Below, piece by piece: positions 1 through 64,000 of a stretch of 64,000 bases of DNA. The stretch is from Blasia pusilla (taxonomy: Eukaryota). Every line of letters starts with the position of its first letter. Position 1 is the first letter of the stretch. The notes beneath the pieces are model-generated. The model was not told the DNA's origin. It searched no databases and worked only from the letters and a program-made list of their open reading frames with translations. The stretch covers positions 34,534,001 through 34,598,000 of the forward strand of contig CM114271.1 of assembly GCA_050084515.1 (NCBI GenBank). The letters are read 5' to 3'. A program made the position numbers and the translations under genes.

Positions 1-3000
1 CATTGGTCTAGTCTTCGAAAGGATTCTAGTGTGTGGTATGTGTGGACATGAGAGACTTATCACCTTAGGGGAGTTTAATCATACTAGAAATAGTGGATGG
101 TTTGGCTTGTTATTTTCCCAATGAGAGTGGATTATCCTTCTTGGAAGAGCATCTTCGCCAAACACCATTCTAGAGGACAGTAGAAGATGTTTGTCAAGTA
201 TGGATAGGGATGGAGCACGAGTTGTGTCCGATCTTCCTTTCCTTAACCCATATCACGTCAAGATTCTCTTTGTAGTTAGGCACTAGTTCACTCGCTATCT
301 AATTTATCACTTTGGGGAGGCGTTCATGAACCAAGTCATGCAATCTCCAACTACGTGATTCTTCCTATAGTCACATAAGGAAGAACATGGGATTGTACTT
401 GGTACCCTTCATAGATCGTGTAACTTTCAAACCTACGACATTCAAATAATGGGCTTGACGAGTGACCAATTAGAGTGACGTCTAGAGGAGGTATTTTGAC
501 GATTGCAGTTACATGGGCTGAAGCTGCATCCAAGCAAGTGCAAGTTCTTCTATAACCAGATTGAGTACTTGGATCATACGATATACCTAGGGGGCCTTGG
601 TGTGCAACAGAAGAAGGTAGAGGCTATTTCATGCATTCCACGCCCTACACATGTGAGTCGAGTTTGTGCATTCATGGGATTGGCGAACTTCTATCAATGG
701 TACGTCAAGGATTTCAGTTCAATTGCGAAGTCGCTAACCTTGCTCACCAAGGTGGATCAGGAGTGGCACTGTGGGGATAAGCACAACACAGCATTTCAAC
801 ATCTCAAGGATACATTGACGTCTGCGCCTATATTGAGGAGACCAATCAAGGGGTGTCCTTTCCAGTTGCATACCGATTGGAGTATATTGGGGCTTGGAGC
901 CGTGCTCACCCAGCATGACGATGATGGTAGAGAGTTCGTGATGGCTTACGCTAGTTGCTCAAACAACGCTGCAAAGGCAAAGTATAGCTTGTATGAGGGT
1001 GAGTGCTTGGCTGTAGTGTGGGTTGTCGTACATTTCAGATGTTATATATTCAGAAATCCCTTTACCATCATTAATGATCATCAACCACTTAAGAGGTTTA
1101 TGGAGTCGGACAAGCTCACATGGAAGCTTGCGAGGTGGGCTCTTTTGTTGCAGGAGTATGACTTCCAGGTGGTGCATAGACTTGGGATGTTCAACCAGGA
1201 TGCAGATGGTTTGAGCCATAATCCATGCCCGAGTTAGCAAGATTCGACTGGAGCTCGTTGGCATGGTGAGAGTGATGAGCAGTTGGTGCCAGGATGGCAC
1301 GCGTTAGCCTTTTTGGGATTGTTGGCTATGGAGAGCTAGATTGTTGAGACTTTGATGGCGAGGTCTGATGGAGAGTCCTTAGATCCAGAGGTCGGTGAGG
1401 AGACGATAGGTGGTCGAGAAATTCACGACGATGGAGTGGTCTTGGAGTACCTGCGTACAAGTAGCGTCGCAAGCACAGTGGGTGCTAGAGAGCAGGATCG
1501 GATCCTACGGCGAGCCAGACGGGTCCGGTGGGAGGGGACACATGTGTTGCAAGTTTAGGAGGATGATAGAGTGCGTGTTGTGCCTCATCCTTTGCAGAGA
1601 GCACATTTGATGGATCATGCCCACGAGGAGTTGGGTCATTTTGGAGTGAAGCGGACGTACAAATCGCTCCAGATACAATATTGGTGGCGAGGCATGCAGA
1701 TTGACGTTCATCAGTTTGTTGCAAGTTGCATGGTGTGTGATCAAGTTTGAGCATAGTTCAATGCTCCAACTCCACAATTGCATCCACTTTCGATCATAGA
1801 TTTAGGTTATAGATGGAGTTTGGATTTTGCAGGACCTTTGCCTTTGACAGAGCGCCATAGTCATTATGTGTTAGTAATAGTCGAGCACTTCTCAAAGTGG
1901 GTAGAGTTGGTTGCATTTCCTGATAAAGCGAGTGAGGGAGTAGCGTATCCCTTCCTAGATTGAGTGCTGAGTCATTACGGTGCATCAGTTGAAGTGTTGA
2001 TAGACCAGGGTACAGAGTTTCACGAGGAGTTTCAGGCCTTGTGTGATCAGGCCCTAATCGACCACCATACCATTTCACGAGATCATCCTGAGGCGGATGG
2101 ACTAACAAAGAGGGTTGTGCAGACGATGAAGAGAGGATTACGCAAGTATGGTCTGCAGAGAGGTCACCTAGGAGATTGAGACCTCTAGTTTCCGTGGTTG
2201 GCGATGAGATACAGATTCAGCTGGCAAGCATCCTTAGCGTCTTTCTCACCGTACTTGTTGCTTTATGGTCGAGAGCCAGATTTACCTGCGGCCATTCGTC
2301 GAGATGTTGGTGAGATATTGAATCTTGATGACCCTGATGTATGGATGCGAGCATGTTCTCAGAGGGCTGAGTTGTTTCGAAGAGTGATGCCCATGGCGTT
2401 TGAGAACTTGGCGATTGCGCAACATCGAGATACGTTGAGGTATGCGACTATTCGGGGAGGTGGTTATCAACCTACTATCCAGAGGTTTCATCAGGGAAAC
2501 TATGTCTACTTATAGTAGACGACACCCACGACATTGGATGTGACTACATGGCGCATTATCTTGAGAGTGCATGAGATTTTGCCATCCGGTGTTCTCTTAT
2601 TGGAGGGACGCGATGGTATGGTTTGGAAGGACCATGTGCGTAACTGTGCGTCATGTCATCTTCCAAACATTGACGGTACAGTTGATCCAAGCTTAGTGTT
2701 AGTTCGTGCAGGCTTGCGATGTATGTTATGTGGTTCTGCCCGTGGTGCAGTCACTATGCAAGTTTGTGATGGATGTTCGAGAGGATGGCATATGGCATGT
2801 CTAACGCCACCTCTCCTGGGGTTCCTCAAGGACGATGGATGTGTCCCAGATGTACATAGAGTAGGTAGTTCTAGATTTCGACTTGTGTCCATGACATGGA
2901 TGACAAGAAGGCGACTAACGATGGGGTCACATGAGCACCCGGCCTTTTTGGTCTTAGCGTTCGAGAGATGTATGTCATGGTAGGTAGGGATAGATGGCTA

Positions 3001-3039
3001 TCTGGAGTTAGAAGGACCTAACCACCAACTAGGGGGACG

Positions 3040-3168
3040 ATTGGAGATATTTTGGTACTTCTTGTCTTGTTGTTTGGATGCCATGAGTTAGCATGGGATC
3101 ATGCATGTTTGTGTGTATGTTTTTTTGACAACGATGTATGTTGTGTAGTGATGTGTATGCGCACGACA
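3040..3168 (+). repeat. Partial terminal repeat (segment B), a direct repeat of the distal part of the adjacent LTR (3681-3794)
   Basis: attggagatattttggtacttcttgtc...gatgccatgagttagcatgggatc...tatgcgcac..gaca occurs at 3040-3168 and again at 3681-3794. The first copy directly follows the G-tract at 3031-3037. Confidence 0.92.
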
Positions 3169-3170
3169 TT

Positions 3171-3794
3171 TGTCATGACTTTTAGGATAGATCGGCGAGA
3201 TCTAGTAGAGCGCCTTCGGAGATACTGGAGGATAGCCTCAGAAGGTTGAGGTTTGACCTGCTAAGGCCACTGGTAACCTGAGAGAGAAGGTTTTCCCCTT
3301 TGTTTTGGCTCATTTGGAGCCATATATAGAAACTTACTATTTTTGGTAAGTTTACATTTAGAATATAGTTGGATTTCTACTTTGGGAAGTAGCCCTTGGC
3401 CCGCTACGGCAGGTAAAGAGCCAAGGAGGTGACTTGTGAGCATAGGTTACCGAGGAGAGAGCTTGGGAGAGGGAACGGGGTATACCTCCAAGAGAGAGAG
3501 AGCTTGAGAGCTCATTCTCTCTTTGTTGAACCTCTTGGCATGAGGCGGCGGAGCTATGGTCCCTTGCCTTGTGAGTGTAACCCAAGCCTTTCATTAGGAG
3601 AGTGGGTTTGGTTTGACATAGAGAGAGAGTGCACACATTTGAGAGCTATGGTATTGAGAGAGATTGGATCTACTAGATTTATTGGAGATATTTTGGTACT
3701 TCTTGTCTCGTTGTTTGGATGCCATGAGTTAGCATGGGATCGTGCGTGTTTGTGTGTATGTTTGTTGATAGCGATGTATATGCGCACACAGACA
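3171..3794 (+). repeat. Putative full-length LTR (~624 bp, TGTCA...GACA)
   Basis: Terminal TGTC/GACA inverted repeat and a TATA-like tatatagaa near 3323. A diverged homologous unit with matching boundaries stands alone at 9641-10156. Confidence 0.75.
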
Positions 3795-12400: not shown

Positions 12401-12705
12401 CCTCCTCCCCTTGTTGGGATGTCATTGCCTTTCCTTGTCCTCTTATGAGATTTGTTCTTTTAATAAAGGTGACACTTCACTTATTCATCCATATAAACCT
12501 CCTCCCGTTCTTGCAATGATATTACCTTTGCTTGTCCTCTATCTTAGGTTTTTTTTCTTTAATAAAGGTGACACTTCACTTATTCATCCACATAAACATC
12601 CTCCCGTTATTGGGATGATATTACCTTTCCTTGCCCTCTTTCTTAGGTTTGTTTTCTTTAATAAAGGTGATACTTCACTTATTCATCCCCACAAACGTTC
12701 CCGTC
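12401..12705. repeat. Tandem repeat, ~99-bp unit, about 3 copies
   Basis: taataaaggtga(c/t)acttcacttattcatcc recurs at about 12461, 12560 and 12659. This explains the repetitive ORF 12411-12713. Confidence 0.9.
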
Positions 12706-14665: not shown

Positions 14666-14750
14666 TATATAGGTCGCCTGCCCCATCACTCTACCGTATC
14701 TACCGTCCCCGTCCCCGACCCCGCCCCCGCCCCCGCCCCCGCCCCCGCGC
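14666..14750 (+). promoter_or_regulatory. Candidate TATA box followed by a (CCCCG(C/T/A))n tract; probable promoter/5' UTR of the phytocyanin gene
   Basis: ccgtatatagg near 14666, then about 7 hexamer units at 14705-14748. A donor-like GTGAGT near 14850 and an acceptor tgcag ending at 16643, just before the ATG at 16653, would define a ~1.8-kb 5' UTR intron (inference). Confidence 0.45.
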
Positions 14751-16652: not shown

Positions 16653-18334
16653 ATGGGTGTCCGCGTGAGCAGTTGCCAATTGTGCTTCCTCTTGGTGATT
16701 CTTGTGGGAGCTCCGTACTTCCATAATGTTGAAGCAAAAACTTTGAGAGTCGGTGGCGTACTCGGATGGACTAACATGGACCTTACCACGGCTAATTCTC
16801 CAAACTACAACACTTGGGCTAATTCACAAACCATCGAGGTCGGCGATGTGTTAGGTAAGTGGGTGTACTGTAACCGATCTGGAATAGATATTAAAAGCAG
16901 AGTCTTGGATTCGAACAGTCAGTGGCGTGTGGTGTCGAGATGCTGGTATTCCTCACAGTGAGAACTGGACATGAGTTTATTTTCCTGGTTGTCGCTCTCC
17001 CGTCTCGCCATGTTTCGTGTAAACGGCAGAGACGTGATTGGATTAAAGGCGGCGCATGGAAGTTGACCATGCGCAATCGTTGTTGCAGTTTTCAACTCCG
17101 TCGCCAACGTTCACAATGTTTATGAATTCCCAACGCAAGCCGCGTACGACACGTGCTCTTTCACTGCCGCGACACTACTCTCCGACGGTTCATCCGGAAC
17201 GTTTTCGGTACGAGTCCTGATTAGTAATTCCATGGATTCTCTTGCATAGTCGGTTTGTAAGGACCGAGTTCTATTGCGTTCTTCGTTCTAATCGCAGTCC
17301 TCTGTATGCTTGCCTATCGCAGTGGACAGCTCCTGCCGCGGGTGAGTACTTCTTCGGTTGCTCTGTTGGAATGGAGGCATCGCATTGCGCGCAGGGACAG
17401 AAGTTCGCAGCTAGAGTGTTTCAGCCGACAGCCGATGCGCCCGCGCCTCCTCCCACTGCCGGAGGACCTGTTCTAGCTCCCACCACCCCACCACCCTCTC
17501 CGCCGCCACCAGCTGTCCTCCCTCCCCCTCCAACTGCAGCCCCCGTCGCTCCCATTCCCGCCCCAACTCCACCACCGGTTCTCCCACCACCCGCTCCAGC
17601 TCCCCTAACAGCACCCCCAACCCCAGCGCCCGTTGCCGCAGTGCCTACTCCAGCACCCGTCGTAACCCCACCAACCCCAGCCCCGGTCGTGGCCCCGCCA
17701 ACTGCAGCCCCAGTTCCAGCTCCAGTCACTACCCCACCAACGCCCGCTCCTTCCACCGCTGTACCCATACCAGCTCCCACTACGGCTGCACCGACGCCAG
17801 CTCCCACCACAGCCACACCCACGCCAGCTCCGACTACGGTCCCAGTAGCGGCTCCGGCACCCAGACCTGTGGCTCCCGCCCCCACCCCCAAGGGCAAGGC
17901 CCCAGCTCCCACCCCTAAGCGTGCCCCGGTTCCAGCTCCGGCCCCATCGCCATTCCTTGGACCTCCTGCGCCTCCGAGCGAGACTACACCCGTCGCCCCC
18001 GCGATCGCACCCTCGGCTGTCCCGACACCACCGGTAAGTGAAAGATCTAGCTTCCTTGTGGATTTCGTCGTTCTCCGCCGTCACTTCCTACCACCGACGG
18101 GATCCTGCACTCTTTGTATTCAGCAGGATGCTGCATTAGGTACTCTCTCGGTGGTGTCCGATTTCACTGAGCGTTTACGGCCTGATTGCTTGGTGTCAGC
18201 GTTTGGATCAGCGTTTCTAACAGTTTATTTGCCTGTGCGACCTGTCACAGAGCGCCGGCATCATCAACACCCCTTACACATGGAGAGCTGTGGTGCTTGC
18301 TGCTGCTCTTTTGGCGGCCCTGACAATGTACTAA
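16653..18334 (+). CDS. Phytocyanin (stellacyanin-type) / arabinogalactan-protein chimera, GPI-anchored, ~371 aa; exons 16653-16854, 17089-17207, 17323-18033, 18251-18334
   Basis: Signal peptide, then VGGVLGW...YNTWANSQTIEVGDVL|VF...HNVYEF...YDTC...|...YFFGCSVGMEASHCAQGQKF. The Cu ligands are H-C-H-Q, the stellacyanin pattern. A ~200-aa AP/TP/PP-rich region follows, then a hydrophobic C-terminal GPI signal (SAGIINTPYTWRAVVLAAALLAALTMY*). All introns are GT-AG and in phase. Confidence 0.93.
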
Positions 18335-18915
18335 GAAACAATGGAGTGACAGTCGTCCGCTACTTATTAAATATGGCTTTTCGTCCATAGCCTTCGAAAG
18401 GACCCGGACATTCTTCCTTCGTCGATTTGGTCCGTTGCTGAACGTAACCTGTAGATGGATGGTACTGGCTGGCATTCCAAGCGCAATCTTCGAAAGCCTG
18501 GCCGCTGAGATGCAGACGCCTCTGTACTAAAAAAACAGTTGGGTGAGGCTATTCTTCACCATGTTAGAAATCCATTCTGTGTGCGCGACTCGCATAAACA
18601 ATTAATTCTTATGTCCTGCGCCGAACCACAGGACTTCTAAAAGTTAATTCTTATGGTCTATGCCCAGCCATAGACAGTTTTGACAGTAGATTTAAAACCA
18701 GAATAGTATCTATGCTACATACTTCTGATGTAACTTTCGCTTCCAACTGGTTTGCTGCTGGGTGATTCTGCCTCACGGCGGTTGAATCGATGCGGAATAT
18801 TTTATATTGTATAGTTTTCTCAAAGATCTCAACAAGTGCATGTGTTACCACAACTCCGAAGTAATGGCCCAGTCGGCTGTTCTGTTTCCCCGTTGGCTTC
18901 CTGGTCTCGACAAAT

Positions 18916-48668: not shown

Positions 48669-51410
48669 TTAAAGATTTGCTTCAGCCTGTTTAAAATAGA
48701 GGCCGGCAACCGTGATTAAAACGTTCAACAAATATAGTTCCTCGGTATCTTGTAACTGCTTCAGTGCTCTAATGCCAGCACAATATCTCAGCATTGCACG
48801 AAAGGCAGCACTTGTTTCCGCATTGAGGGGTGTGTCCACCACTGCTGAAAGACCCAGTAGCCACAATGCTCGTTCTGCAGGCAAGCCGTCCACACTGTCT
48901 AACCAAGCAACATGGTACCTGAACAAAGCTGCTCTAGAAACTTCATCAAGGCGTAATAACAGACTCATCACTGGAAGGTGCTGAACTCTATCTACTCTGA
49001 ACACTTTGGTGAGAAGTTCCACCAGTGGTTCACTAATCTCATTATTGAGATCATCCTCAGAATCATCTAGCAAAATATTATTTCTTGAACTGTTGTAAAC
49101 CTCCAATCCAGTCATTGACTCCATGCAAGCTTCAGGTAGATCCAGGTATTCTAAATCCGGCATTCCAACCAATTGTAGGGAGGCTTCACTTGATTTTCCC
49201 AACTCAGCATCTGACACATAATCAGCTTCAGATTCCAGAAGCACAGTACATACTGGTGAGGTCCCACATGATGTCAACCTTGTACTAGTGAGATCCACTT
49301 CATGTTCCACAGGCTCAACATCACAGTCATGTGCTCCTGATATGCACTCAGTTTCTAGGTAATCGGCTTCAGATTCAGATGGGCATACAGGCTGCTCACA
49401 TGAACCTATCAACTCTACATGCTTGACTTCCTCTTCTTGTGTACTTGTCACTGATCCGAAACAGATTGTTTCCCAGGCTGCTCGATTTCGTATGGATGGT
49501 AAATGTTGTTCAGAAGGATCGAGTAGTAGATGAATTTTTGACAACTCCTGCACACCAAGAGGCTTCACATTACAGTTTGCAAGAGCAGATCTCTAATCTC
49601 CATGCAGGTCAATATAGATCAGCATAGCAGGGTGAGACAGGTAGAGAGTACATGGAAACAAATTAACAACTTCTCTATGCCAGCAACAAATATTTGCCAG
49701 CTAACATACCATCCTCAGCTGTGTGAAGTCTGTCAAGATGTTTTGTTCCCAGTCCTTTGATGGGAGCAAATCCGGAGGACAAGGTGCAATAGATGGAATT
49801 TCTGGCATGTATGATGTCTGTTCTGATGATAGCTTCTCTGCGTCAATTTCAGCTACCACCACCTTTGGACACCGAGCAGCTTCCCATCTGTAATGAAGTT
49901 CAACATTAACCACATCACACAGCAAGCATCACCTGTCATTGTCTGCTTCCACAACAGAGGAAAGGTACCTGAAGTTGAAAATTGTAAAAAAAATGTTACA
50001 CGCACTACCTTGCAGCCAACACAAACCCAGGATAACCATGAGACTTTACAACCATCTTTAGCATCAAATGCAGATTACCACATCTTTTCACCTAATTTGA
50101 AACAGCAATTCTGTGAAATAAGTTCTACTGAAGAAATGGGCAAAAAGGTGTGACGCTATCATACATGACACGTCGAAGATATTCCCATCCATCTTGAGGT
50201 GGCCCAGATTCAAAATCAGGTTCTCCTTCCACAGCAAAAGCTTGAGGCTGAAAACTCTCTTTCTCTTCCTCACTTTCTTCATCATAATTTCTGTATTTTG
50301 AAGACCCTTTTTTACGACCATGACTCTTTCCACCATGATAGTCAACGACTTTCTGGGAGTTGGGATTAGATACATCATAATCTCCATAGATATTGTCATT
50401 GATGATGTCACCAAGAGCTTGATCTGCGACCACAGTACATCATCAATGGTTATCTCTAATGGAACAGTTACAAAATTTTAACATCCAAAAACTTAGTAAC
50501 CTCCAATTCCAGAAATTCTCATGTAATTTGAACCCATGGTGACCTTCCGTGAAATATCAAAGACTCCTCATTTATAACAGGGTCCAACTATTCTGCTGCT
50601 GTCAGTTCATCCGTCACAAGGGAGCACTGCTATCATCACCCTTGACTTAAGGCTGTTTGCTTGGAAGGATATTTTACCATTGGCTGGTCATGACCATCTT
50701 CAGAGGGAAAGTGTACAGAATGGCAGAGAACAATTAGTCATCAGCGTGAAGCAGTTCACAGCATCTGCTAAAAGTCCCATTCTACTAGGACAAAGGGTAC
50801 TTATGTGTCCCAATCAAGTATGTTACCAGTAGATATTGAGCTTATTCTTGAAGTATCCTGTTCACTTTAAGGGGACCTAAATGACGTCTTTTGGTCTCAA
50901 TTCCAGAGTTTGCCTATTATATACCAATTTAGCACTCCTTTACTGGTGTTAAAATTCTCATTTGAAAATAACACTTCTCTTAAGTCCTAAAATTATTAAA
51001 TAGGCTGTCTAGGCTGGCATTCAAATTTTCTGGTCACTCTTACATGTCTTACCAGTGCTTAAATAGGTCAAGCCCACTCGAAATAAGTCATTATAAAGTG
51101 ATTGTGATCCCTTACCTGTTGCATTTAGGGAGCTTGCAAACAATGCATCACGCTTCGCCTTACTCCTCTGCTTTCTTTCACTATTCTTAATTCTCCTTCT
51201 TGAAAAACTAGTGTCAGTCAAAGCCTGCATTTCATTGAGCTCCTCCACAAGTTCTGGCCTCATAGCAGCGAGGACCTGACTCCACTGCTCCTCTAAATTA
51301 TCGCACTCCTCCCATATCGACAGTAGCTCTTCTCTACCGTAGCGCAGAATCCTGTATTCCACCTCACCTTGAATGAATTCAAGATTGTCTCTATCTGCCT
51401 CCACATCCAT
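48669..51410 (-). CDS. GEMIN2: GEMIN2 / SIP1 (SMN complex, snRNP assembly), ~551 aa; exons 51410-51116, 50423-50165, 49887-49710, 49592-48669
   Basis: Motifs AFAVEGEPDFESGPPQDGWEYLRRV|IWEAARCPKVVVA, EQTSYMPEIPSIAPCPPDLLPSKDWEQ and WLLGLSAVVDTPLNAETSAAFRAMLRYC...LNVLITVAGLYFKQ. Introns are in phase. The start codon and first donor are the least certain parts. Confidence 0.93.
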
Positions 51411-52970
51411 ATGAGAAAGTTTGAAGGCAGATTGATTAAGACCCTCGACTTCAGTGACTGCACTTTCACCAACCAGGGAGGTTGTTACGACATGAACTTC
51501 CTCGATTTCTCTCAGGCTCAACACACCTCCTACAGATGTGTTGAGTAACCAAGCACACTAGATTAGCAAACAAAGATTAGAGGTTCGACGCCATCGGAAT
51601 AAAGTACAGGCTGGTCTCAAATCATGGGCAACAAATCCAGATAGAATGGCGTATCGACGACCCCTTCAAAAGGACCGCGCAGTTACTATTCTTGTGCGTA
51701 ACTCATGCAACGTACCCGCTGTTGTCGATGGCCTTGGTGGCATACTCTATTTGGTAAACGCGTCCATCAGGAGAAAATGTAGTGACCGACAAATAATGAA
51801 ACAGCCCGATAAATTAGGCAAGAAATTTGCCCGTAAGCAAAGTCGAGTGCGTGGCGAATCTCACCCCCACGCGCAGCTCGATCTGCTATGAAACTGAAAG
51901 CACATCCGCCAGAGCCGATTGGCCAACGCCCGTCAGAATTCGACCGCGTCCAAAATCTCCACAAATCCGGGCCGCCACACTCTCGCGTTCAGACTTCGAC
52001 AAATTGCCTCCGCGTCAGGCGTCACTTTCTGGCCCTTTCAATTCAAGCGATTCTCATGATTTCGCGGTGCGCACAATCGGAACGCATCCGGTTTGAAGAA
52101 AACCTGCGAGGTCCATCACTAGCGCCCAGGCCGTAATTCCTTCACCACGAATAGGCGCTAACTAGGGCTTCTGATTCAAAATGCTGGGCGGATGTGGTCT
52201 TACGGGGGATTCCCGAGTCACCTTCCTTGACCAAATGGAGCCGCCATTCAAACGAGAGCGAAGGAATCCGATTACTATTTACCGTCCGTTTTGTGGATAT
52301 GGATGTAGACCGTCTTACGCACGGAATCAAATATGATCCATGATTAAAAAAGCAAACAAAATATATGCACCCTATCCACAAGGTAGGGTATAGAAGTATA
52401 GGGTGGAGATATGAATATAGAAGAAGAAGAAATATAGAAGGTGGTGGAGATATGGATATAGAAGGTGTTGAATATAATAATATGATTAGTAAGATGACCA
52501 TGTCATGGGAAATAAAAAAGTGTGTGAAAAATTTTTGCTAATGTATAATATGTGAAAAGAAAGATTAATGATGTTGCATGCAAATTTTTAAAAAAATAAA
52601 ATATTTTCTTGTTGTCAACCACCATCTAATAGTTAATTTTGATTAATGATATCATTTTCCTTTTCCATTCAAATTTATTTTCTTTTCCCAAAATATCACA
52701 TTTGAATTATTGTTTTTTTTTAAATAATCATATTATTCAATTCAAATTTTTAATATAAAATTTATTTTCTAAGATCTTAGAAGAGTAATCATATTTCATT
52801 CTTCCAAGTAATTATGCTTTAAATTTTATTTAAAGCTCCTCCATTCATATTTAAATGAAATTCACTCCTTCTTCATTAAAATTTATTATCCTTTTCCATC
52901 AAATATGAATTAAGGCACAAATCATAAAATTTTGGTTATTTATCATTATTATTATTATTTAATAATATTT

Positions 52971-53502
52971 ATAATTACCCATTATAATATTAATAAATGA
53001 TTAATAAAAAATTCTATTCCCTTTTTGTAATCCATATCTATTACTAACCACCTATCTATTACTACCCATCTAAGCTAATGTGGTTAACCTACAAAATTGC
53101 CTATTTTGTTGTATCCTCTCGTTATATTATCGTTTTATGCATATTGGATAGATAATCATCCATTATAATATTAAAAAAGTTATTAATTGATTAATAAAAC
53201 ATTTCTATTCCATTTTTTAATCCCTATCTATTACTACCCATCTAATCTTATGCGATCAACCTACAAAATTTCCTATTTTGTTATATCTTCTCAATATCTT
53301 GCCGTATTATGCATATTGGGTCATCAATTATTTGATAGATAATCACCCATTATAATACTAAAAAATTCTTAATTGATTAAAAATTCTATGCCATTTTTCT
53401 AATCCCTATCTATTACTAACCACCTATTTATTACTACTCGTCTAATCTAATGTGGTTAACCAACAAATTTGCCTATTTTGTGGTATCTTCTCTTTATCTT
53501 AT
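52971..53502. repeat. Tandem repeat, ~185-bp unit, 3 copies, AT-rich
   Basis: ataat.a.ccattataata.taa...tatctattacta...aacc.acaaa.ttgcctattttgt starts at about 52971, 53152 and 53339. Confidence 0.9.
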
Positions 53503-53629
53503 CAACGGAAGTGAATAAATCAGTCGTGCGATGTAGGGACTACAAATAATGGATAATTTTGATAATTTAAAAATGAATTTGAATAACCCTTTTGCCTTGA
53601 GTAACATACGATTTTATTGGCTAGAAAGG

Positions 53630-56600
53630 TGTCGTGCGCATACATATTGCTATACAACATACATCGATGGTCACATCTTCACCACACAACACCAATCTTC
53701 CCCACACACGGGTCGATCCACACATATACAAAAATCAACTCATACATATACATGGAAATCACACAACCACCCCCCTAGTTGGCAGTTGGATCCCCCCAAC
53801 TCCAGATAGAAAATATCACATCTCTCTAACATGACCTACTACCCTATACACATCTCGGACACATCCATCGTTCCGTGGGAACCACATCAAGAGGGGAGAT
53901 CAGACATGACATATGCCATCCTCGAGAACAACCATCACATACCAACATGCTGGTTGCACCCCTCGCGGATCCACACAACATACATCTCAAGTCTGCAGGT
54001 ACCACTGCCAAGCTCGGATCCACCATCCCATCTACGTTCGGAAGATGACATGGCGCACAATTGCGCACATGATCCTTCCAAACCATACCATCTCGTCCCT
54101 CCAACATGAGGACTCCGCTCGGAAATACCTCGCGCACACGTAGGATTGTGCGCCCTACAGTGACATCTAGCGTCGTGGGTGCCGCCTGTTGTAAATACAC
54201 GTAATCTCCATGATGAAACCTCCTAATCCTTGGACGATAACCTCCTCCACGAATGGTCGCGTACCTCAATGTATCTCTATGCTGGGCAATAGCTAAGTTC
54301 TCAAAGGCCATAGGCATAACTCTACGAAAAACTTCTGCCCTCTGAGAACATGCTTGTACCCACACATCTGAATCATCAAGATCTAACACCTCCGCCATGT
54401 CATGTCGAATCGCTGTAGATAAATCTGGCTCTCTCCCAAAGAGCAAAAAGTACGGTGAAAATGATGCCAAGGATGCCTGCCGACTAAACGATTACCCCTT
54501 GCCAACCATGGACACTGTAGATCCCACTCCCTCAACTGTCCCCGCTGCAAGCGATACTTGCGCAATCCTCTTTGCACCGTCTGTACCACTCTCTCCGCCA
54601 ACCCATACGCCTCATGATGATCTCTGGACGTGGTGCAGTGATCTATCGCGCCTCATCACACAAGGCCTGAAACTCTCCCCTGAACTCGGTACCCTGGTCA
54701 GTCAATACCTCCGCCGGTGCACCAAAGTGACTAAGCACACGATCTAGGAACGCATAAGCTGTTCCTTCGCTCGCCTTGTCTGGTAGTGCCACCAACTCTA
54801 TCCACTTGGAGCAATGCTCCACCATGACCAACACGTACCTATGATGACATCCCGTCAATGGCAAAAGTCCCGCAAAGTCTAAACTCCACCAATAACCTAA
54901 ACCCATAATCGGCAAAGGATGTAACTGAGTGGGAGCATTGAAGGATGCTCGCACTCTGTCACATACCATACATCTGGCCACAAATTGCTGTACCCTAGTA
55001 TGCATGCCGCGCCACCGATATTGAACCTGGAGTAAGTTGTAGGTACGCTTTACTCCAAAATGTCCCAACTCCTCATGGGCATGTCGCACTACACGTGCTC
55101 GCTGGGAAGGATGAGGTACCACTCGTATCCTACCATCTCCCTATACCCGCAAAATGTGAGTCCCCTCCCACTTGAACCTCTTGGCTCTTTGTAGGATCCG
55201 ATCCCGCTCCCTAGCACTCACTGCACTCGCAATGACACCAGTGCGCAAGAACTCCACAACCTCCACGTCGTCATGGATATCACGACCATCTGTCGCCTCC
55301 TCACTAACCTCCAGATCCAAAGACTCATCATCCAACCCCACCACTGGAGTCATCACTTGTGGCTGACCTGCCATAGTCAACCAACAAAGATAGGCAGATG
55401 CATGCCAACCGGGCACCATCTCCTCATCACTCTCTCCGTGCCATCGAGCTCCTGTGTCGTCTCTCTGCCTCGGACATGGGTTACGACTCAACCCATCCGC
55501 ATCCAAGTTCAGCCGACCTGGCCTATGAACCACCTCAAACTCATACTCCTATAGTAATAGAGCCCACCTGGCAAGCTTTCCTGTAAGCTTGTCGGACTCC
55601 ATCAACCACCTCAACGGCTGATGATCAGTGATAAGTGTGAAAGGGTTGCCGAATAAATAGCACCTGAAATGTGCCACAGCCCACAGTGCAGCCAAGCACT
55701 CTCCCTCGTAGGAGCTGTACTTTGCCTCTACAATGTTGTTCGATTGGCTCGCGTAAGCCACAACAAACTCCTTCTCCTTGTCATCCCTGTGAGTAGCACT
55801 GCTCCTAGACCCAACATGCTCCAATCCATATGTAGTTGGAATGTGCGACCCCTAACCGGTCTCTGTAAAATGGGTGAGGATGTCAACCTGTCCTTGAGCT
55901 CCTGAAATGCTTGCTCCTGATCATCTCCCCACAACCAAACCAGATCAAGTCTCGTCAACAAGGTCAAAGACTTTGTGATCGCACTAAAACCCTTGACATA
56001 CCGTCGATAGAAGTTCGCCAGTCGAAGAAATGCTCGGACTCGACTCACATCTGTAGGGCGTGGAATCTGCGCAATAGCCTCTACCTTCGTCTGCTGAACG
56101 CCTAACCCACTCGGGTATATGGTGTGTGTCCCAAGTACTCAATATGCTCCTGAAAGAATCTGCACTTGCCTGGATGTAACTTCAGTCCATGTAACTGCAA
56201 TCGCCGAAACACCTCCTCCAAGTGTCGCTCATGCTCCTCAACCGTGGAATTGAAGATAAGAATATCATCTATGTAACATCGTACAAAATCCAAGCTAGCG
56301 AGAATCCTATCCATCACTCTCTAAAACTCTGCGGGCGCATTCTTCAACCCAAATGGTAAGAACCGCCACTGATACAAGCAATCTCTCTCAAACCGATCTA
56401 TCCCCCAGAATGTTGTCTTCTGCCTGTCCTCCAACCTGATAGGAAGCTGATGATAGCCAACACGAAGATCTAAAGTACTAAAGATCTTTGCATGCCCTAC
56501 CGCATCAAAGATCTCCTCAAGAGTAGGCATGGCGTACCGATCTGACCTCGTCTGTCGGTTGATAGGACGGTAATCTCCACACATCCGCCTATCCGTCCAA

Positions 56601-59600
56601 TTGCCATACATATCCTTCTTTGCCGGAATGATTGTGGCAGATGCATACTCCCCATGTGATAACTCCACAAGTCCTTCCTCCAAAAAGTCGTGACTCCTGC
56701 TCGGAATCAAGGCTCGCTCCATATCAGAATACCAGTAGGATCAACGAAAGATCGGTGTATCACTAGCCAACTCAATCCGTATCCCGGGACCCTTCAGCGC
56801 ACCCAAGTCTCTCATACTGAAGGAAAAACAAATTACATGCCCTCTCAGAATCCTATGAACTCTTCGTCGCTCTCCTCCTATCAACTTGAGACCTATCACA
56901 GGCTCCCAAGTCTCCATCGTGACCTCAATTGGAGAGGACGCAACCTCCGGCTTTGGTTGCTATGTAGCAACCCTAGCCACCTCCGCAACAGCCATTCCAC
57001 TCTGACCTCCTACACTATGCTCCACATCCGAAAAATGAACATGTGCTACTCTAGCCGCCTTCGCACTCTCTACTCGAACGACGTCCCGGGAAGTCCATGG
57101 GTGCCTATCTCTCCTCGTCTCGCCCCCAGCCAATGCTTGTACAAACCCTGTAGGCAATGGTCCAACTCGTGGACGTGACGGCATGGATGACACTCGCATC
57201 CGTCTCTGCTCAGCCATACATAGGCTGACTATCCATGTAAGACAGTTGAGGTCCATTTCCTGCCCCAACACCTGTCTACGGGATGCCTCAATCATCCCTG
57301 GCACCGCCGTAGTACCGATAGCGAACCCCATGGCGCGTTCGCGCTCATCTGCTGTAGGCTCCTCCAATGCTCCGGTCACCTCATCCCAAATCATGCCTGG
57401 CCCTCCCTGACAAAAGGCATGGGATGTTGGGAAGCTCACCAACGTAGGTAAGGCTGCCCTCAACTCCCCCATCCTATTGGCCATGGCCAACGGTGGTCTA
57501 TCATCCTGTGTCACCACTTGAGATCGACGCCGTGAGCCCAAAATAGCATCCACTGTGAGATGTCGTGCTCTCTGGACTCCAACGTATGCTTGACTCAATA
57601 CATCTTATGGTATCAAGTTCGTCCACCATAGTCGTGGACGATGGGCAAGTGATCCAACTATGGTTTGCATCTAACAACACAGCAGGTCCCAACCAAGACT
57701 TCACCTGATGTATACTCGTCATCACACGTGCAGGAGTATCTCCCAACAATGGCACGTTCTCCAAAATGTACCTGGAAAACATATCTTACTCTCTTGCAAG
57801 TGTCGTACTACTCGCACCATCTCCCAAAATATCCCTGATCTCGGATTGTGCAATCCAAATCCTCGGCCAGCTGATGAATGACCCTGACATGGCCATCCAA
57901 CAATCACCAAACGAAAGGTGCCAACTTTATCCAGATCCTGCGCCCCCACCAAAGAGATGTCGGCGGGTAGCGTATGTTGATATCCCCGTAGTGCAGATAC
58001 CGACAACAACTCAGGATACCTCTGGACCAATCTCGCCACGTGACGTAATGATACTCGCCGCGCGGTCTCATCTCTCTCCACATAAAGGTATTGATGCACC
58101 CGTATGCCCGCCTGCAATAGTGCAGCCAATTCGGTGCTAATCCCTCCGAAGAGATCTAACACCCTCTTATGGGCACTGCCACACAACGGGTGTGGTATCC
58201 AATGGGGTCAACGTCTCCACTCTAAGAGCCCGATCGCCACGTAACTCTCGCTGCTGTGGGATAAAAGCATGACTCCACGCCTGCCTCACGTCGGCACTCC
58301 TCTATAGCTCTCAAGTCATACCCCACAATGGTGAAGAGGCCTTGCCAACATGGGAAGAGACACCCGCCATGGCCTGTCTCTCCGTGGGACTATCCGCTAC
58401 TGTGACACCCTCCACATGTGCGTTCCCCTCCAATAACTCTTGGGGCCAGCTAACACTACCTGTGAAAGCCGCCAACATGGTCACAGACTCACCTCATGAT
58501 CGACCACCTCGTTCCGCAAACTGCATGGGTAACTGACTCATCGAGCCGTCACCTGACCGCCATCCTCGCCGATAAGCAGCGGTCTCTTCCCATAAGTCAA
58601 GGATGAATCTTAGGGGATATAACACTGTACTCCCCACCAACACATCGTACGACTCAACTGGTGTCGTAATCGCACGTGTGCTTACCATAGCACTATCCGT
58701 CTCATGCTCTGGCTGGACTCTAACAACTATCTCTTGTCGAGTCATATACTGCGTGGGTGACACGCCCCCAATCGAGGTCTGTATCTGGAAGGGAAAAGGC
58801 TCAATGTCGGCCTTCCATAACCCCAACGCTAAACACGCGTCTTCCCTAACATCAAGGGTTGCGCTCCTGAATCAAGTAGGACGCGTTGCGGGTGGCATAA
58901 TGTCCCCGTCGGACTAACCAAGGGAAATACTTAAGCTCGGTTATCGAGTAACACTACTCCATGTGTCACCACTGCTTGCTCTATAGCCGGTCGAGCTGGC
59001 ATATCTACCAACTTCGCCGCCGCCGCATGCCATGACTCTGTGGGGAACGTCCCGAGCACCGGCTTTGAGTGCAAGTCCACCACCTCCTCACCTACCTTTG
59101 AACAAGAAGCAGTCATCTCTCCACGCTCACACAACGTGGCGGCCAACCGAACACCTCAACTGGTCCAACTCCCAACATCGCCAACTCTATGGCGGAAAAT
59201 AGTGGAGTCTGACTCACTCTGGTGGCCACCTCCAACACTATCGTCGACAGTGACTCCGGCATAGGAGTTGTCACTCCAACTCCTCATGACGTCAACGTAG
59301 GTGCCTGAGTTGTAGGCACTGCTGGTCGTCGAGGCACCATCGATGGTGTGTGTAGTGCCTCCCACAATGTGAATGATTATGGAACCCTGGCCTGCCGCCC
59401 ATCGGTCCCCTGTGGTGGGTCAATCTCAACTCCACCTCTCTATGGCTCGGTGCCTCTCGCAGCACCCCGAGTCACCACTGCACCTGCCTCAACCTGGGCT
59501 GCACTACACATAAATCCCATACTGGCAAGATCCTCACCCGGGTCAGGGTAAGAGGTAGAAGCTGGAGTCACACTAGCTGCTCGTAGCTCCGTGCCTTCCC

Positions 59601-59750
59601 TAAGTTGCATCATTGTCATGGCAGCAATCCTCTACTCCAACTAATCGATGCGTGAGAGAAGTGCCGGCTCTGGTGCTCCTGCTCCATCTCCTGTGGCTGG
59701 TGGTGGTCCTCTACCACCACGTCCAGGAAGGACTCCCCGACCTCCTCCAA
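53630..59750 (-). mobile_element. Ty3/Gypsy retrotransposon carrying a C5 DNA methyltransferase and a PHD finger; 5'-truncated within gag, decayed; copy 2
   Basis: Order on the minus strand: Gly/Arg-rich gag-like region (59750-59000), protease RVLLDSGAQP (DSG at 58873-58865), MTase (58165-57215), RT (RMCGDYRPIN, FSTLDLRVGYHQ, LPFGLKNAPAEF, CYIDDILIF), RNase H, integrase (HAHEELGHFG..CMVCDR, DFAG, TDQGTEF), PHD finger (53984-53844), G-tract (53775-53770), and a terminal segment ending gcgcacgaca at 53630. Confidence 0.97.
57215..58165 (-). pseudogene. DNMT3-like cytosine-5 methyltransferase domain embedded in pol between protease and RT (frameshifted)
   Basis: Motif I VLDLFGGIST, motif II YVERD, motif IV IVGWPCQGHS (PCQ at 57892-57884), motif VI YILENV, motif VIII AHRPRLWWTNL (read by hand at ~57615-57648), motif IX ERERAMGF and motif X RRQVLGQEMDL. 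The order is canonical, not permuted as in DRM. Confidence 0.93.
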
Positions 59751-59759
59751 GTTTAATTA

Positions 59760-62700
59760 ATACTTCCGTTGTGTGTCATGTAGATGGTGAGTGTTGGCGG
59801 ATCATCACTAAATAGGGAGAGACGGCCACTTGGTATTATTACAAATATGCCAATTTCGCAACAAAGTTCGGGAAGACATATTGAAGTATTGAAGAATACC
59901 TCCCCGGTGTAAGAACCTTTGCTTAGGATAAGGAAGTAAGCATCTTATTTCCATTTCAACGATGATGCCTTGGGTTTATTGCATGAGAAAAACATATTTT
60001 CAAGAAAATGACGTAAGTTTACTACATCGACGCTCATTTAGCATGTCCAATTTCCCACCTCACAAAATATTCACTTTTCATTTAATTTTGTAAGCTTTTA
60101 ACATTCATGTGTTGTTCCAGACTTCCAATCCCATTGAATCATGTCAATATACTGACCAAGGTTCTAATCGCCCAAAAATAAAATGCTATTCGAAATGATA
60201 GAATGGAAGCTTCAAAGAAAAAAGAGGAATTACTATCGAGAGTATTGTCAAGTTCCTGAGAGTATTGCTCCTATTCCATTGAATAGGTACCTGTATCTAA
60301 CTTTTTATATTTGATTCACTTCATAACTATTTGATTTACTCCGTTTTTTATTTGTATTTATTCTTATCAATATTTTGACATATTTTCTTAGGCCTTCCAA
60401 TGAGGATGGAATAATAGTAGAAGAAAATCAAGAAGTGAGCGAACAATCGACGGAGTATATTTATATATCGCCAAGACTCGAGTTAGTTGACAATGCATTC
60501 CATGAAATTATCGAGAATACATCCACGATTGAGCCATCACAAGTTGAGTTACCTAACACTCCTCATATTCCAATTCAAAATGAAGTTGTCAACAATTTGT
60601 CGACCGCTCTTCCTATTCGAGTTCAAGATGAAGTTGTCGACAATTCGTCGACCACTCTTCCTATTCTTGTTCAAGATGAAGTTTTTGACAATTCGTCCAA
60701 TTTTGCCTAACTCGGGGATGAATCAAGGTCAAGAGTAGATGCCATGTCTCCTAATGGAGTTTTGTTATCTCCACAACGTGCCACTGTACCAAATACTTAT
60801 ATAATTTGTGTGTCGTCTACCCTTGATAGAGTTTTAAGATTAAATACATTACTCAATCTTGCAAGGAGGCCAAATTTTCAAGAAAGTGATATTTGGAAGT
60901 TGCAATTACAAAGGAGTTTGATCGTACCAGCGCTCGTCATACATTAGGTTCTATGACAGAGATATGTCCTTCATGCCGTGCTTTACATTGGAAATGTGAA
61001 GTGGTCAAAGGTACTAAGTTTGGTGACTCACAATATGGTATGTGTTGTGCCCATGGGAGAATATACTTACCTCTCTTGAGATCGTCTCCTCCATTTCTTA
61101 AATCCTTGATTTCGGGTATTGGTCCTAGAAGCGTTCATTTTCTTACACATGCTCAAGCTTATAATTCTGCACTTCAACTTGCATCTATTGGGATCAATGT
61201 AAACGAACGAATTGGTGGCAATGGACACTTTAGGGTCCAAGGCAGGATCTATCATTCCATTGGACCTTTACATCTTGATATAGGGGGACATCCCCAAATT
61301 GTTCAACTATACATCTATGATATTGCAAATGAATTGGAAAATCGTGTTAGAGTTATGTCTACATCTTCTAATCTTAATATGGATATTTTGAAAGGTCTCC
61401 AAGACATGTTACATGAATGCAATCCATATGTGAAGATCTTTCGTCATATGGCATATGAAGCAAGTGATCTTAATATGCGGATTATCCTCAAGGCAAGTAA
61501 GAGAGGTCTTGATGCAAAGCGTTATAACTTACCAATTGCTTCTGAAGTTGCTGCTATTTTTCCGGGTGATGGAAGTGAACACGTTGAGCATCGTGATATA
61601 ATTGTACGACTACATGGAGGAGGAGTCAAACATATATCCGACCTCAACAAAGTATATATTCCCTTACATTTTGTTTTATTATTTATCTATGGTGAAGTAG
61701 GTTGGTATCCTGGAATACCCTTTGGGCAAATCGAAGGCTGTAGAAAATCCTGACGATTGGGCCACATTATTCATGGAGAGGAGGGACATCCTGAACCTTC
61801 AAATGATTGCATGGATGAGGACAGAGTTTATAGTGATATTGTTGAGGAAAGAAGAACAAAATGTATTACGGCCTTGCAAATTGCATGTTTTGGACTTCAA
61901 ATGTGGGTTGGAGGAGATGATGACAATCGCTTATTGCGGCTTTGTCGACTTACTCAAGAATATATGGTTGAACTCTATGTCACTGTGGAAATGCAATGAT
62001 TATCATGGGTGCGCTTAAATCAGAAGGAGTTGAGGGCTGAATTATATCAAGGTGTAAAGGATGCCATGCATCAATAAGATGCGGATAGCCAAAGGCTTAG
62101 GGAGACGCATTATATTACCTTCTTCTTTTACTGGAGGGCCACGTCATATGCATCAATTGTATCAAGATGCAATGGCAATTGTACGACATTTGGGGAAGCC
62201 TGACTACTTCTTAACCATGACATGCAATCCAAAGTGCGAGGAGATTACATCAGCCCTATTATCTGGCCAATCACTGCAGACCGACTAGATTTGGTCGTGC
62301 GGGTTTTTGAGAAGAAAAAGAAGGACTTGTTACGACTTATCATCAAGAAGGAGATATTGGGCTGAGTTGTAGGATGCATCCATGTGGTGGAATTCCAAAA
62401 AAGAGGATTACCGCATATGCATGTCCTTATTATTTTAGGTCATGAGGATAAATCACGTACCATAATTGATTATGATCGTATCATTTTACTTGAAATCCCT
62501 TATCAATCTACCCATCCAAGGTTATATTCTATCGTTGCTAATTGCATGGTTCACGGGCCATGTGGACCATTAAATCCAAATGCTCCGTGTATGGATAAGG
62601 AAACAAAAAAACGTATAAAAGGCTATCCTAAAGCTTTTGCGGCCAACACTACCAAAACAAAAGTTGGTTATCCAATATATCGTAGGTAAGGATCATTTTA

Positions 62701-64000
62701 TTTCTAAGGCATATGTATTCATGATTCCTTCCAATACCTTCATTCATGATTAATTACGATTATTATTGTGTTTTTGTAGATTGGAGAATGGAAGGGCGAT
62801 AAGTAAGAGCAAACATTCATTGGATAATCATTTGGTTTTGCCTTACAATCCGATGTTATGCACCTTATTCGATTGTCACATTAATTTGGAGATTATAAGT
62901 AGTGTTTCTGTTGTCAAGTACTTATACAAATATGTTTATAAAGGAGCTGATGTTGTGTCATTTAAGTTGTCAAAGGATATGGATACATCCAATGTAATTG
63001 AAGTTATTGACGAGACAACGTGATATCTTGATGCGATGTATGATTTTATGGATTGACTTCTATGATGCATTATACTTTATTTCTCAACTTCATGTGATTG
63101 TCCTTACTCAAATACTTGGAATTCTCATTATTCCAAATATATATCTTCTTGGGAGGCATGTTGGGATCTCTTTAAGTTTAGTCTACATGCCGAACTTCCA
63201 AGTATCGTTCGACTGGCAGTCCATCTTCCGACACAACAATTAGTCTACTTCAATGATGTTGACGCTCTTGGAGATATTTTGCAACTAAAAAGAGAGGCAA
63301 CATTGATCCAATGGTTTGCAACCAATCTATCTGACTCTAGTGCTCGACAATATCTATACATAGATTTTCTTGCTTATTATCGTTGAAGTAACAAGAGGTG
63401 GATTCGTAGGGTACAAAAACAAAATGGTTGTGGCCATCCCATTGGTCGCTTATACCTTACTCATCCAAGTAAATGCTCACAACTTCTTTGTATATAATTT
63501 CTTTTATATTCCACCTCTAAAGCGATGTATCTATATGTTGGGATAAACTCATTTAGTTTAATTCCTCGTAGGTGAAGGAGAACATCATTGGTTGAGATGA
63601 CTTCTCCATCATGTTCGAGGAGCAACTACGTATGAATGTTTGAGAACTGTTAATGGGTTATTATGTCCAACATTCAAGGAGGCTTCTATCCAATTGGGAC
63701 TTCTTGAGGATGATAGGGAAGTGTTCTCTTGCTTTGAAGAAGCTTCTACAATTTGTATAGGTTCTTCACTTTGTCGCCTATTTGTAATTATTCTAGCGTA
63801 CAACACATTTGCTCAATCTACAACACTTTGGAGTCAATTATTGGTTCCAATGGTAGAAGATCTCTTATATGAAGGGCGTCTAGTAAGAATTCATTAATAC
63901 CCTTGCATCATTTTTTTTATTCTTAATAGTATCTTCTATTGAGCATTCAACAATCTAACCAATTTTGGGTTATCATCCTATTTTGTAGAAAATTGGAATT
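59760..64000 (+). mobile_element. Helitron, Rep portion of RepHel, intron-containing, decayed; continues beyond the window (5' boundary uncertain)
   Basis: Motifs CPSCRALHW..CCAHG, AYNSALQLASIG, QGRIYHSIG, QLYIYD, HECNPYVK, RYNLP..SEVAAIF, GRRIILPSSFTGGPRHMHQLYQDAMAIVRHLGKPDYFLTMTCNP, HUH motif VEFQKRGLPHMH, VHGPCG, KYLYKYVYKG and LRTVNG..PTFKEASIQLGLLEDD. GT-AG introns at about 62686-62779 and 63469-63571. Multiple stops. Confidence 0.95.

Follow-up and report, generated by a model that had tools for sequence, protein, structure and literature searches.

In a 64,000-nucleotide stretch of the Blasia pusilla genome (assembly GCA_050084515.1, contig CM114271.1, forward-strand positions 34,534,001 to 34,598,000; called the window below and numbered from its first letter), we found a decayed retroelement on the minus strand, running from 59,760 to 53,630, that holds a gag remnant, a protease (PR), a C5-cytosine methyltransferase (MTase), a reverse transcriptase (RT), an RNase H (RH), an integrase (IN), and a PHD finger. 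We read it, with a probability of roughly 0.8, as a dead, 5'-truncated copy of a Ty3/Gypsy-type element in which the MTase lies between PR and RT and the PHD finger follows the integrase, and which belongs to the lineage of KnitGypsy-Dnmt3 from Klebsormidium nitens (de Mendoza et al. 2018, Nat Commun 9:1341; cited here and below from the available excerpts of the article). Judging from the matching sequences, the lineage is present in many copies in liverworts and mosses, and it occurs in Closterium as well. This kind of element was already published in 2018; its membership in a land plant is the new part.

The methyltransferase domain

A 161-amino-acid (aa) fragment of the window, 57722-58207 (-), matches the Pfam family DNA_methylase (PF00145) with an E-value of 4.2e-7 and 30.1 bits against a cut-off of 22, and intact relatives reach 3e-13 to 1.1e-15; the domain search that a preliminary description of this DNA had proposed thus comes out in favor of an MTase. 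Read in three frames, motifs I, IV, VI, VIII, IX, and X follow one another in canonical order between 58159 and 57233, and the catalytic Cys and Glu are both present. The domain aligns end-to-end with residues 883-1260 of the Marchantia polymorpha gene model P0005, at 56% identity, and because of this end-to-end alignment it is without sign of introns; no gaps suggestive of introns occur in the alignment to P0005 residues 875-1260. The preliminary description had placed intronless C5-MTase motifs between protease and RT on the strand of pol, and the Pfam match, the motif reading, and the P0005 alignment all agree with it. Two 1-nt frame shifts, at ~57,785 and ~57,660, and one TAA stop (57607-57605) interrupt the window MTase, which thus has no open frame able to yield an enzyme.

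We ranked all solved structures against a profile built from eleven members of the family. DNMT3A (3.4e-11), DNMT3C (3.3e-9), and DNMT3B (~1e-8) came first, followed at a lower level by tobacco NtDRM (1.9e-6), HaeIII (7e-4), DNMT2 (1.8e-3), and Arabidopsis DRM2 (8e-3), and DNMT1 gave no match at ≤0.01 in this search. The best structural matches of the window MTase are likewise DNMT3A/B. The DNMT3A counterparts of the motifs AHR.R..W.NL and E.ER..GF are visible in the profile alignment, and the motif order is not permuted, unlike that of DRM. The MTase therefore appears DNMT3-like, as had been proposed, and closest to DNMT3A/B/C among solved structures, in a ranking of structures and not a tree. 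Neither PWWP nor ADD domains were found by Pfam in the window open reading frames (ORFs) or in the full-length relatives, in which the sole reader domain is the PHD finger of the integrase. A Marchantia homologue searched in the ESM Atlas matched generic DNA_methylase clusters only.

Domain organization and decay of the window copy

The element forms a GC-rich island (~0.51-0.53) amid AT-rich flanks (0.33-0.37), and the GC content falls at ~59,760-59,820, on its 5' side. Its pol is arranged PR-RT-RH-IN as in Ty3/Gypsy elements; the RT is Ty3-like and the integrase is of the DDE type (Table 1). The closest solved relatives of the RT are the Ty3 RT (4ol8, 5.3e-36) and Ty3 Gag-Pol (7q5b, 3.7e-35), with a caulimovirus polyprotein and foamy-virus Pol ranking behind them. 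The protease is marked by its active-site motif LLDSGA (58879-58862); a Pfam scan of the protease-region fragments returned no family. Pfam scans of the window ORFs and of full-length relatives detected rve and Integrase_H2C2 and no tyrosine recombinase.

All features of the preliminary description are present, and the PHD finger, which it had not mentioned, is to be added to them. Its nearest solved relatives are the first PHD fingers of KDM5A (1.7e-12) and KDM5B (2.1e-12), and DPF3, CHD4, PHF21A/BHC80, UHRF1, and AIRE come next in rank. PHD fingers of the KDM5A-PHD1, DPF3, BHC80, and AIRE kind read the histone H3 tail unmethylated at K4.

The gag remnant is the point at which the copy is cut off on its 5' side: the alignment begins inside gag, at P0005 residue ~395-444, without a 5' repeat and without CCHC knuckles, and a glycine/arginine-rich stretch stands just upstream of it. 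Neither an N-terminal gag nor a CCHC knuckle was found anywhere in the 64-kb window, and no direct repeats, long terminal repeats (LTRs), or inverted repeats flanking the copy were detected in 50,000-64,000 and 53,400-60,300. The bounds first given for the element, 53,630 to 59,750, are thus borne out in part, in that 53,630 is its true 3' terminus (see below) and, near 59,750, the element has been cut off within gag. The copy is dead, as described earlier, and able to make no protein, because gag is 5'-truncated and the remainder carries ~9 frame changes (seven from one tblastn segment to the next, two more within the MTase) and more than 12 in-frame stops.

Table 1. Coordinates of the element, its methyltransferase motifs, and the second copy in the window
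Feature	Positions	Strand	Evidence and remarks
gag C-terminal remnant	59149..59760	-	tblastn of Marchantia P0005 residues 395-546, matching 59670-59149; 42% identity, 5 stops
Aspartic protease region	58210..59149	-	P0005 residues 547-881, matching 59149-58158; two frames, 6 stops
DNMT3-like C5 MTase and linker to RT	57017..58207	-	Pfam DNA_methylase, three-frame reading, P0005 alignment
MTase motif I, LDLFGGIS	58159-58136	-	
MTase motif IV, GWPCQGHS	57898-57875	-	
MTase motif VI, YILENVP	57770-57750	-	
MTase motif VIII, AHRPRLWWTNL	57646-57614	-	
MTase motif IX, ERERAMGF	57346-57323	-	
MTase motif X, RRQVLGQEMDLNCLTW	57280-57233	-	
Reverse transcriptase	56102..56869	-	Pfam RVT_1 3.2e-15 and 6.4e-9 (on 56102-56740); includes YIDDILIF
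RNase H	55549..56138	-	Pfam RT_RNaseH_2 1.5e-12, RT_RNaseH 2.8e-24 (the latter on 55549-55851)
Integrase H2C2 zinc-binding region and DDE core	54643..55140	-	Pfam Integrase_H2C2 5.1e-16, rve 4.3e-13
Integrase C-terminal region with terminal C4HC3 PHD finger (53984-53850)	53844..54491	-	Pfam PHD 5e-10
3' untranslated end	53630..53843	-	Polypurine-like CTAGGGGGG (53778-53770), one terminal repeat B, terminus ...GCGCACGACA (53630)
Second copy, 5'-truncated	485..3790	+	End of RT, RNase H, integrase, PHD, B1, A2, B2

The host and the relatives of the element

The ORF at 48669-49592 (-) is an exon of a Gemin2/SIP1 gene (Pfam SIP1, 6.3e-24) with matches at 52-63% identity in Calypogeia, Marchantia paleacea, two Riccia species, and M. 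polymorpha. Because all five of these matches are liverworts, the sequence itself indicates a liverwort host, in agreement with the land-plant host assumed earlier. The Gemin2/SIP1-like gene occupies 48669-49592 (-) and 51021-51557 (-), ~2-5 kb from the 3' end of the element.

A word-indexed protein search (E ≤ 1e-3) with the 161-aa MTase fragment as the query matched 37 proteins at 48-76% identity. The 16 matches that bear an organism name are all from bryophytes, namely M. polymorpha (10), Calypogeia fissa (4), and Sphagnum (2), and relatives from these bryophytes reach 60-72% identity. Marchantia models of 1159-1333 aa, P0005 among them, contain gag with two CCHC knuckles, PR (DSG), and the MTase, and the Marchantia model P0029 contains the MTase, RT, and RNase H. 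The Marchantia gene model of Mp_4g09160, which includes the MTase domain, is naturally open. Bryophyte gene models of this family are thus already in public protein sets, where they have gone unremarked.

Of 197 candidate stretches on metagenome contigs, 105 were confirmed, and 80 loci were kept. In all 14 loci inspected, gag, PR, MTase, RT, RH, IN, and PHD follow one another on one strand. The MTase shares the frame of the protease in 47 of 50 loci and that of the RT in 24 of 34, and CCHC, PR, MTase, RT, RH, and IN occur together in unbroken ORFs of 2188-2358 aa, with the PHD finger present in P0217; the view that the MTase is part of the polyprotein, put forward in the preliminary description, holds in these relatives. 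In a DNA run of the host species, the numbers of contigs that cover the three MTase positions listed are 39, 57, and 58. The MTase is not a one-off capture: the segment, whose confinement to this copy had been named as the finding that would speak against the idea, is multi-copy in the host-species runs and occurs in other bryophytes.

The 3' terminus, the second copy, and the split repeats

The homology between the element described above (copy 1) and repeat B1 of the second copy in the window (copy 2) stops exactly at 53,630, the last base of ...GCGCACGACA, and 53,630 is therefore the true 3' terminus. The same terminus was seen in metagenome relatives, and RNA reads of relatives continue past 53630 into different, shared sequence. 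Copy 2 is 73.7% identical in nucleotides to 53839-56218 and has Pfam matches to RT_RNaseH (2.3e-30) and PHD (1.8e-5). It starts late in RT, where P0203 aligns from residue 1532 onward only, lacks any MTase part, and is therefore uninformative on the MTase. Its PHD finger is followed by the polypurine-like CTAGGGGG, a polypurine word that copy 1 has too. The tail of copy 2 then consists of B1 (3040-3168), two bases, A2 (3171-3680, which starts TGTCATGAC), and B2 (3681-3790), with B1 and B2 93% identical over 100 nt. Copies 1 and 2 differ by a synonymous divergence (dS) of ~1.4-1.7 and, given this distance, belong to old and separate sub-lineages.

The full-length metagenome relatives show the complete arrangement. 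In locus L065, A1 (5997-6336) equals A2 (14753-15089) at 91% and B1 (14634-14748) equals B2 (15089-15203) at 94%, with no B behind A1. The same split direct repeats, A1 ... B1-A2-B2, are found in L037, L060, and L078, and in L006 and L048 the A pair is visible before the locus ends. The B1/A2 junction in these relatives consists of the 3' end of the element, four bases, and the 5' end of the element, and the full-length relatives have the ends TGTCATGACC... and ...CGCACGACA (TG...CA). L065 is flanked by CATA on both sides, a candidate 4-bp duplication, and L037 by AACA/AATA; L078 has the same flanks as L065 and is seemingly one locus with it, the 5' end of L060 is damaged, and both window copies are 5'-truncated. 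The full-length relatives hence carry DIRS-like split repeats instead of LTRs.

Loci L043 and L035, like copy 1, stop after a single B, without A2-B2; such ends are consistent with a deletion through recombination of B1 with B2, comparable on a small scale to the way solo LTRs arise. AT-rich tandem repeats of ~170-200 bp, in three units 64-88% alike (52960-53503), adjoin the 3' terminus of the element. They were considered as a candidate B1-A2-B2 and rejected, since 53,630 is the point at which the copy-2 homology stops and the conserved terminus lies. Two short matches to A2 of copy 2 (84-88% over 38-42 nt) at 9886-9963 possibly mark another fragment of the family.

Both window copies retain the 3' terminus and are without the 5' part. 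In the host DNA run, the summed contig depth peaks at the non-coding 3' end, with 84,112 versus 2,467-17,906 over MTase, PR, and gag, which lie 5-30x below it. This gradient could stem from frequent 5' truncation or from better conservation of RT to IN.

Two architectures and the methyltransferase trees

An exhaustive profile search gave 4511 matches at E ≤ 1e-3, 410 of them at E ≤ 1e-30, and the best 150 of the 4511 were listed. A set of 88 proteins of at least 900 aa was sorted by architecture. RT/RNase H stand ahead of the MTase in 55 of the 88, and 13 more show MTase-IN-PHD (both groups together being type II); the order gag/PR-MTase(-RT...) of the window copy (type I) was found in 18, and 2 were uninformative. 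Among the type II proteins are the 'pol' of Scenedesmus sp. PABB004 (KAF8056149.1) and Monoraphidium neglectum MNEG_11595. Proteins of type I come from Marchantia, Calypogeia, Sphagnum, and three strains of Closterium. The K. nitens protein GAQ93235.1 (P0120) contains zf-CCHC, Asp_protease, and DNA_methylase in that order. The apparent split of the architectures between streptophytes and chlorophytes is a pattern and not proof, being drawn from nine named organisms only.

Two trees of the MTase were built, a FastTree of 140 segments and a quick IQ-TREE of 69 rows from 215 segments, with identical sequences entered once. The latter drew on 47 type I segments, 16 of type II, and nine further rows, six of them unlabelled ones from the type I clade of the FastTree and three from the bryophyte clade. 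Both trees part type I from type II, and in IQ-TREE the 16 type II rows lie on one side of a branch with a Shimodaira-Hasegawa-like approximate likelihood ratio (SH-aLRT) value of 96. The window copy falls in a clade of 18 rows, marked 100, together with all named bryophytes, and Closterium lies inside a clade marked 99. GAQ93235.1 branches deeply on the type I side, to which the window copy belongs as well, and the link to Klebsormidium made in the preliminary description is thereby substantiated, in that the window copy clusters with a gag-PR-MTase protein of K. nitens.

The MTases of the moss Sphagnum stand beside those of Marchantia, the outer branches being the liverwort ones (Calypogeia and the window), and the branches are short. 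This placement could result from old lineage sorting or from transfer between bryophytes. It bears on the possibility that the land-plant copies arose by horizontal transfer, between bryophytes and/or from algae, and are not vertical survivors from charophytes, for which branches of only 0.05-0.15 changes per site would speak. However, differently sorted old sub-lineages yield the same picture, the two window copies being already dS ~1.4-1.7 apart, and the order of Klebsormidium, Closterium, and the bryophytes matches the host relationships in outline, with few rows named. We consider such transfer rather unlikely.

Conservation, selection, and transcription

Catalytic columns were read in an alignment of 139 proteins covering at least 270 residues of the domain, using 27 type I and 77 type II rows and leaving out 35 rows without an architecture label. 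The Cys of motif IV is present in 25 of 27 type I rows (the other two being gaps) and the Glu of motif VI in all 27; the Asn of motif VI is kept in 24/27 and the two arginines of motif VIII in 23/27 and 25/27. In type II, all of these columns are conserved in 77/77 rows, except for the second arginine (76/77). In 45/77 type II and 10/27 type I rows, glutamate takes the place of the proline of the 'PC' in motif IV (EC-Q), which is unusual for C5-MTases; PCQ stands in the window copy.

Three RNA-seq runs of the host species, in which reads of at least 80% likeness were placed, yielded 2797, 3006, and 2966 reads. In most of them the first mate is on the plus strand, which is the sense orientation of the element in dUTP-type, the usual stranded, libraries. 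Only 3, 13, and 9 reads in the three runs are at least 99% alike to the window copy. Relatives of the element are transcribed, and the window copy hardly.

The ratio of nonsynonymous to synonymous divergence (dN/dS) was computed for those 39 of the 80 loci whose MTase match runs in a single uninterrupted frame; the remaining 41 are shifted or cut. Between the two window copies it is 0.13 for RNase H, 0.10 for the integrase, and 0.085 for the integrase C-terminal/PHD part. The 39 loci keep the MTase frame over 310 codons, yet average 3.6 in-frame stops each. Point substitutions far outnumber indels in the metagenome copies, as expected for methylated, deaminating repeats; the CpG observed/expected ratio (window copy 0.72, relatives 0.28-0.59, host exon 0.34) is uninformative on the methylation history.

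Several points weigh against our reading of the element. Most of the RNA reads (2128, 2262, and 2257) are less than 90% alike and so come from relatives, the depth is 2-22 over MTase, PR, and gag versus 15-146 over RT, IN, and PHD, and the diverged reads possibly include families without an MTase. The median dN/dS of the MTase in the 39 loci is 0.59, versus 0.39 for RT, 0.33 for RH, and 0.43 for IN, and rises to 0.87 for the youngest pairs (dS 0.02-0.1); the MTase is free of stops in 4 of the 80 loci only. The ratio declines with depth, to 0.165 for the 37 pairs with dS > 1 and to 0.13 for the window MTase against the 39 loci (dN 0.30, dS 2.2; 34 pairs usable, 5 saturated), and these low values rest on near-saturated dS and non-independent pairs. 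Furthermore, the term DNMT3-like rests on a hidden Markov model ranking against solved structures, and the MTase trees are without host DNMT3, DRM, and bacterial MTases. As for the relation to KnitGypsy-Dnmt3, GAQ93235.1 is only a candidate for one of its published copies, for which the main text gives no gene ids, and the K. nitens domain gave no methylation in yeast, a result that its authors regard as inconclusive (de Mendoza et al. 2018).

We read the ratios as post-insertion decay on the young branches together with purifying selection in the active lineage. Because the protease is equally high in the same loci (median 0.72), the excess among young copies reflects such decay and not a release specific to the MTase. 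The figures could also be taken to mean that the MTase was captured once as a passenger and is neutral baggage, decaying in all land-plant copies and dispensable for spread; the high young-copy ratios of 0.59-0.87 above those of RT, RH, and IN, the stops or shifts in the MTase of 76 of the 80 metagenome loci, and the dead window copy are what such a passenger would show. It is very improbable, given that the MTase is in frame with its catalytic residues kept across 410 clusters (E < 1e-30), two architectures, and several algal and bryophyte hosts, and that its deep-branch ratios of 0.13-0.17 equal those of RNase H and the integrase. The neutral evolution across copies that the preliminary description had held out as a counter-finding was not seen on these deep branches (dN/dS ~0.13-0.17).

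A second alternative grants that the MTase is kept and supposes that it acts on RNA, as a 5-methylcytosine (m5C) writer on the genomic RNA of the element or on host RNA, or non-catalytically, by binding DNA or chromatin. The yeast result is in its favor, being shared by the K. nitens and SymbioLINE domains, and RNA methylation was raised by the authors for the case of the long interspersed element (LINE) (de Mendoza et al. 2018); the Pro-to-Glu exchange in motif IV described above likewise gives an unusual active-site neighborhood. Set against this, the family profile matches DNMT3A/B/C at 3e-11 to 1e-8 and the RNA enzyme DNMT2 only at 1.8e-3, all residues for C5 transfer are conserved, and the window copy has PCQ. 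We regard an RNA or non-catalytic role as distinctly unlikely.

Other open frames in the window

A 287-aa open frame with a cysteine-rich start lies at 60890-61753 (+), just past the truncated 5' end of the element; it has no Pfam family at E ≤ 0.01 and is possibly part of another mobile element. Another open frame, of 389 aa at 17221-18390 (+), consists of proline/alanine/threonine-rich repeats (PPxPAP...) and has no Pfam family.

Comparison with known systems

The nearest known system is KnitGypsy-Dnmt3, in which intronless DNMT3-related domains lie in the Gypsy Pol ORF, with Ka/Ks below 0.2 and the key catalytic residues kept, and which combines DIRS-like repeats with Gypsy-like domains according to the legend of Fig. 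4c (de Mendoza et al. 2018). The window family shares the intronless DNMT3-related domain in Pol, the Gypsy content, the DIRS-like repeats, and the evidence of purifying selection, and the CCHC-PR-MTase protein GAQ93235.1 shares its MTase clade with the window copy. It differs in its land-plant (liverwort) host and in its reach into Marchantia, Calypogeia, Sphagnum, and Closterium, with the K. nitens branch deep relative to the bryophyte clade. This comparison covers the MTase, the Gypsy content, and the repeats of KnitGypsy-Dnmt3.

The type II elements of chlorophytes and metagenomes resemble the window family in that their RT/RNase H is Ty3-like, a PHD finger comes after their DDE integrase, and their DNMT3-like domain is related, but their MTase is situated between RNase H and integrase instead of between protease and RT. 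We met no published description of type II elements, in a literature search that was not aimed at them by name. In the case of SymbioDIRS-Dnmt3 of Symbiodinium, a DNMT3-type domain is also located inside a retroelement pol and methylates CG de novo in yeast; this is a DIRS element with another RT and without a DDE integrase or PHD module, and an independent acquisition according to the authors (de Mendoza et al. 2018).

Compared with host DNMT3A/B/C, the family MTase has the same catalytic motifs, including AHR.R..W.NL and E.ER..GF, in unpermuted order. Unlike host DNMT3A/B/C and DRM2, it is without PWWP or ADD on the MTase, unpermuted with respect to DRM, and located inside a retroelement polyprotein. 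As in chromoviruses, the integrase bears at its C-terminus a reader of histone tails, presumably steering insertion, but where chromoviruses have a chromodomain, the window family has a PHD finger of the KDM5A-PHD1, DPF3, BHC80, and AIRE kind.

Later papers, in the extracts available, cite the 2018 work alone: a 2026 preprint (10.64898/2026.05.21.726589) has 'streptophytes (Gypsy-DNMT3)', and a 2025 MBE paper (PMC12344493) has 'as previously reported in streptophytes'. No report of an MTase-bearing retrotransposon from a land plant was found in the full-text literature, as seen in extracts; supplements, Repbase, and Dfam were outside the scope of this search, so that prior curation is possible.

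Taken more broadly, the window copy would be a fossil of an ancient green-lineage clade of Ty3-like elements that combines a DNMT3 writer with a PHD reader of H3 unmethylated at K4, has split repeats and two architectures (PR-MTase-RT in streptophytes and RT-RH-MTase-IN in chlorophytes), has been under selection for hundreds of millions of years, and survives in near-intact copies in M. polymorpha. We give this wider picture close to, and just under, an even chance.

Proposed mechanism and significance

The pairing of the integrase PHD finger with the MTase suggests a reader-writer module paralleling host DNMT3 and its ADD domain. The MTase of active copies would be made as part of Pol, and the protease would either free it or leave it attached. 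The MTase would then methylate the new DNA copy of the element or the DNA of the insertion site, and the PHD finger of the integrase would steer insertion to chromatin whose H3 tail is unmethylated at K4, so that writer and reader would be united in the element in a manner resembling host DNMT3 with ADD. As a whole, this mechanism is tentative, and we put the odds somewhat against its being correct in every step. The suggestion of the preliminary description that the enzyme could be packaged and could methylate cDNA is likewise tentative.

Transposons are normally the targets of DNA methylation, and a self-encoded methyltransferase inverts this relationship. Work on MTase-bearing elements has so far been confined to dinoflagellates and a single charophyte alga, which do not lend themselves readily to manipulation. 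Long open gag-PR-MTase models reside in M. polymorpha, a species for which knock-outs, methylomes, and chromatin maps are made routinely, and this puts within direct reach of experiment the question of whether the enzyme methylates new copies of its own element to hide, tame, or mark them. In addition, 'DNMT3-like' gene models of bryophytes may be transposon genes, inflating the counts of host methyltransferases. If the wider picture is true, the function of a transposon-encoded DNA methyltransferase would become testable in a land plant for the first time.

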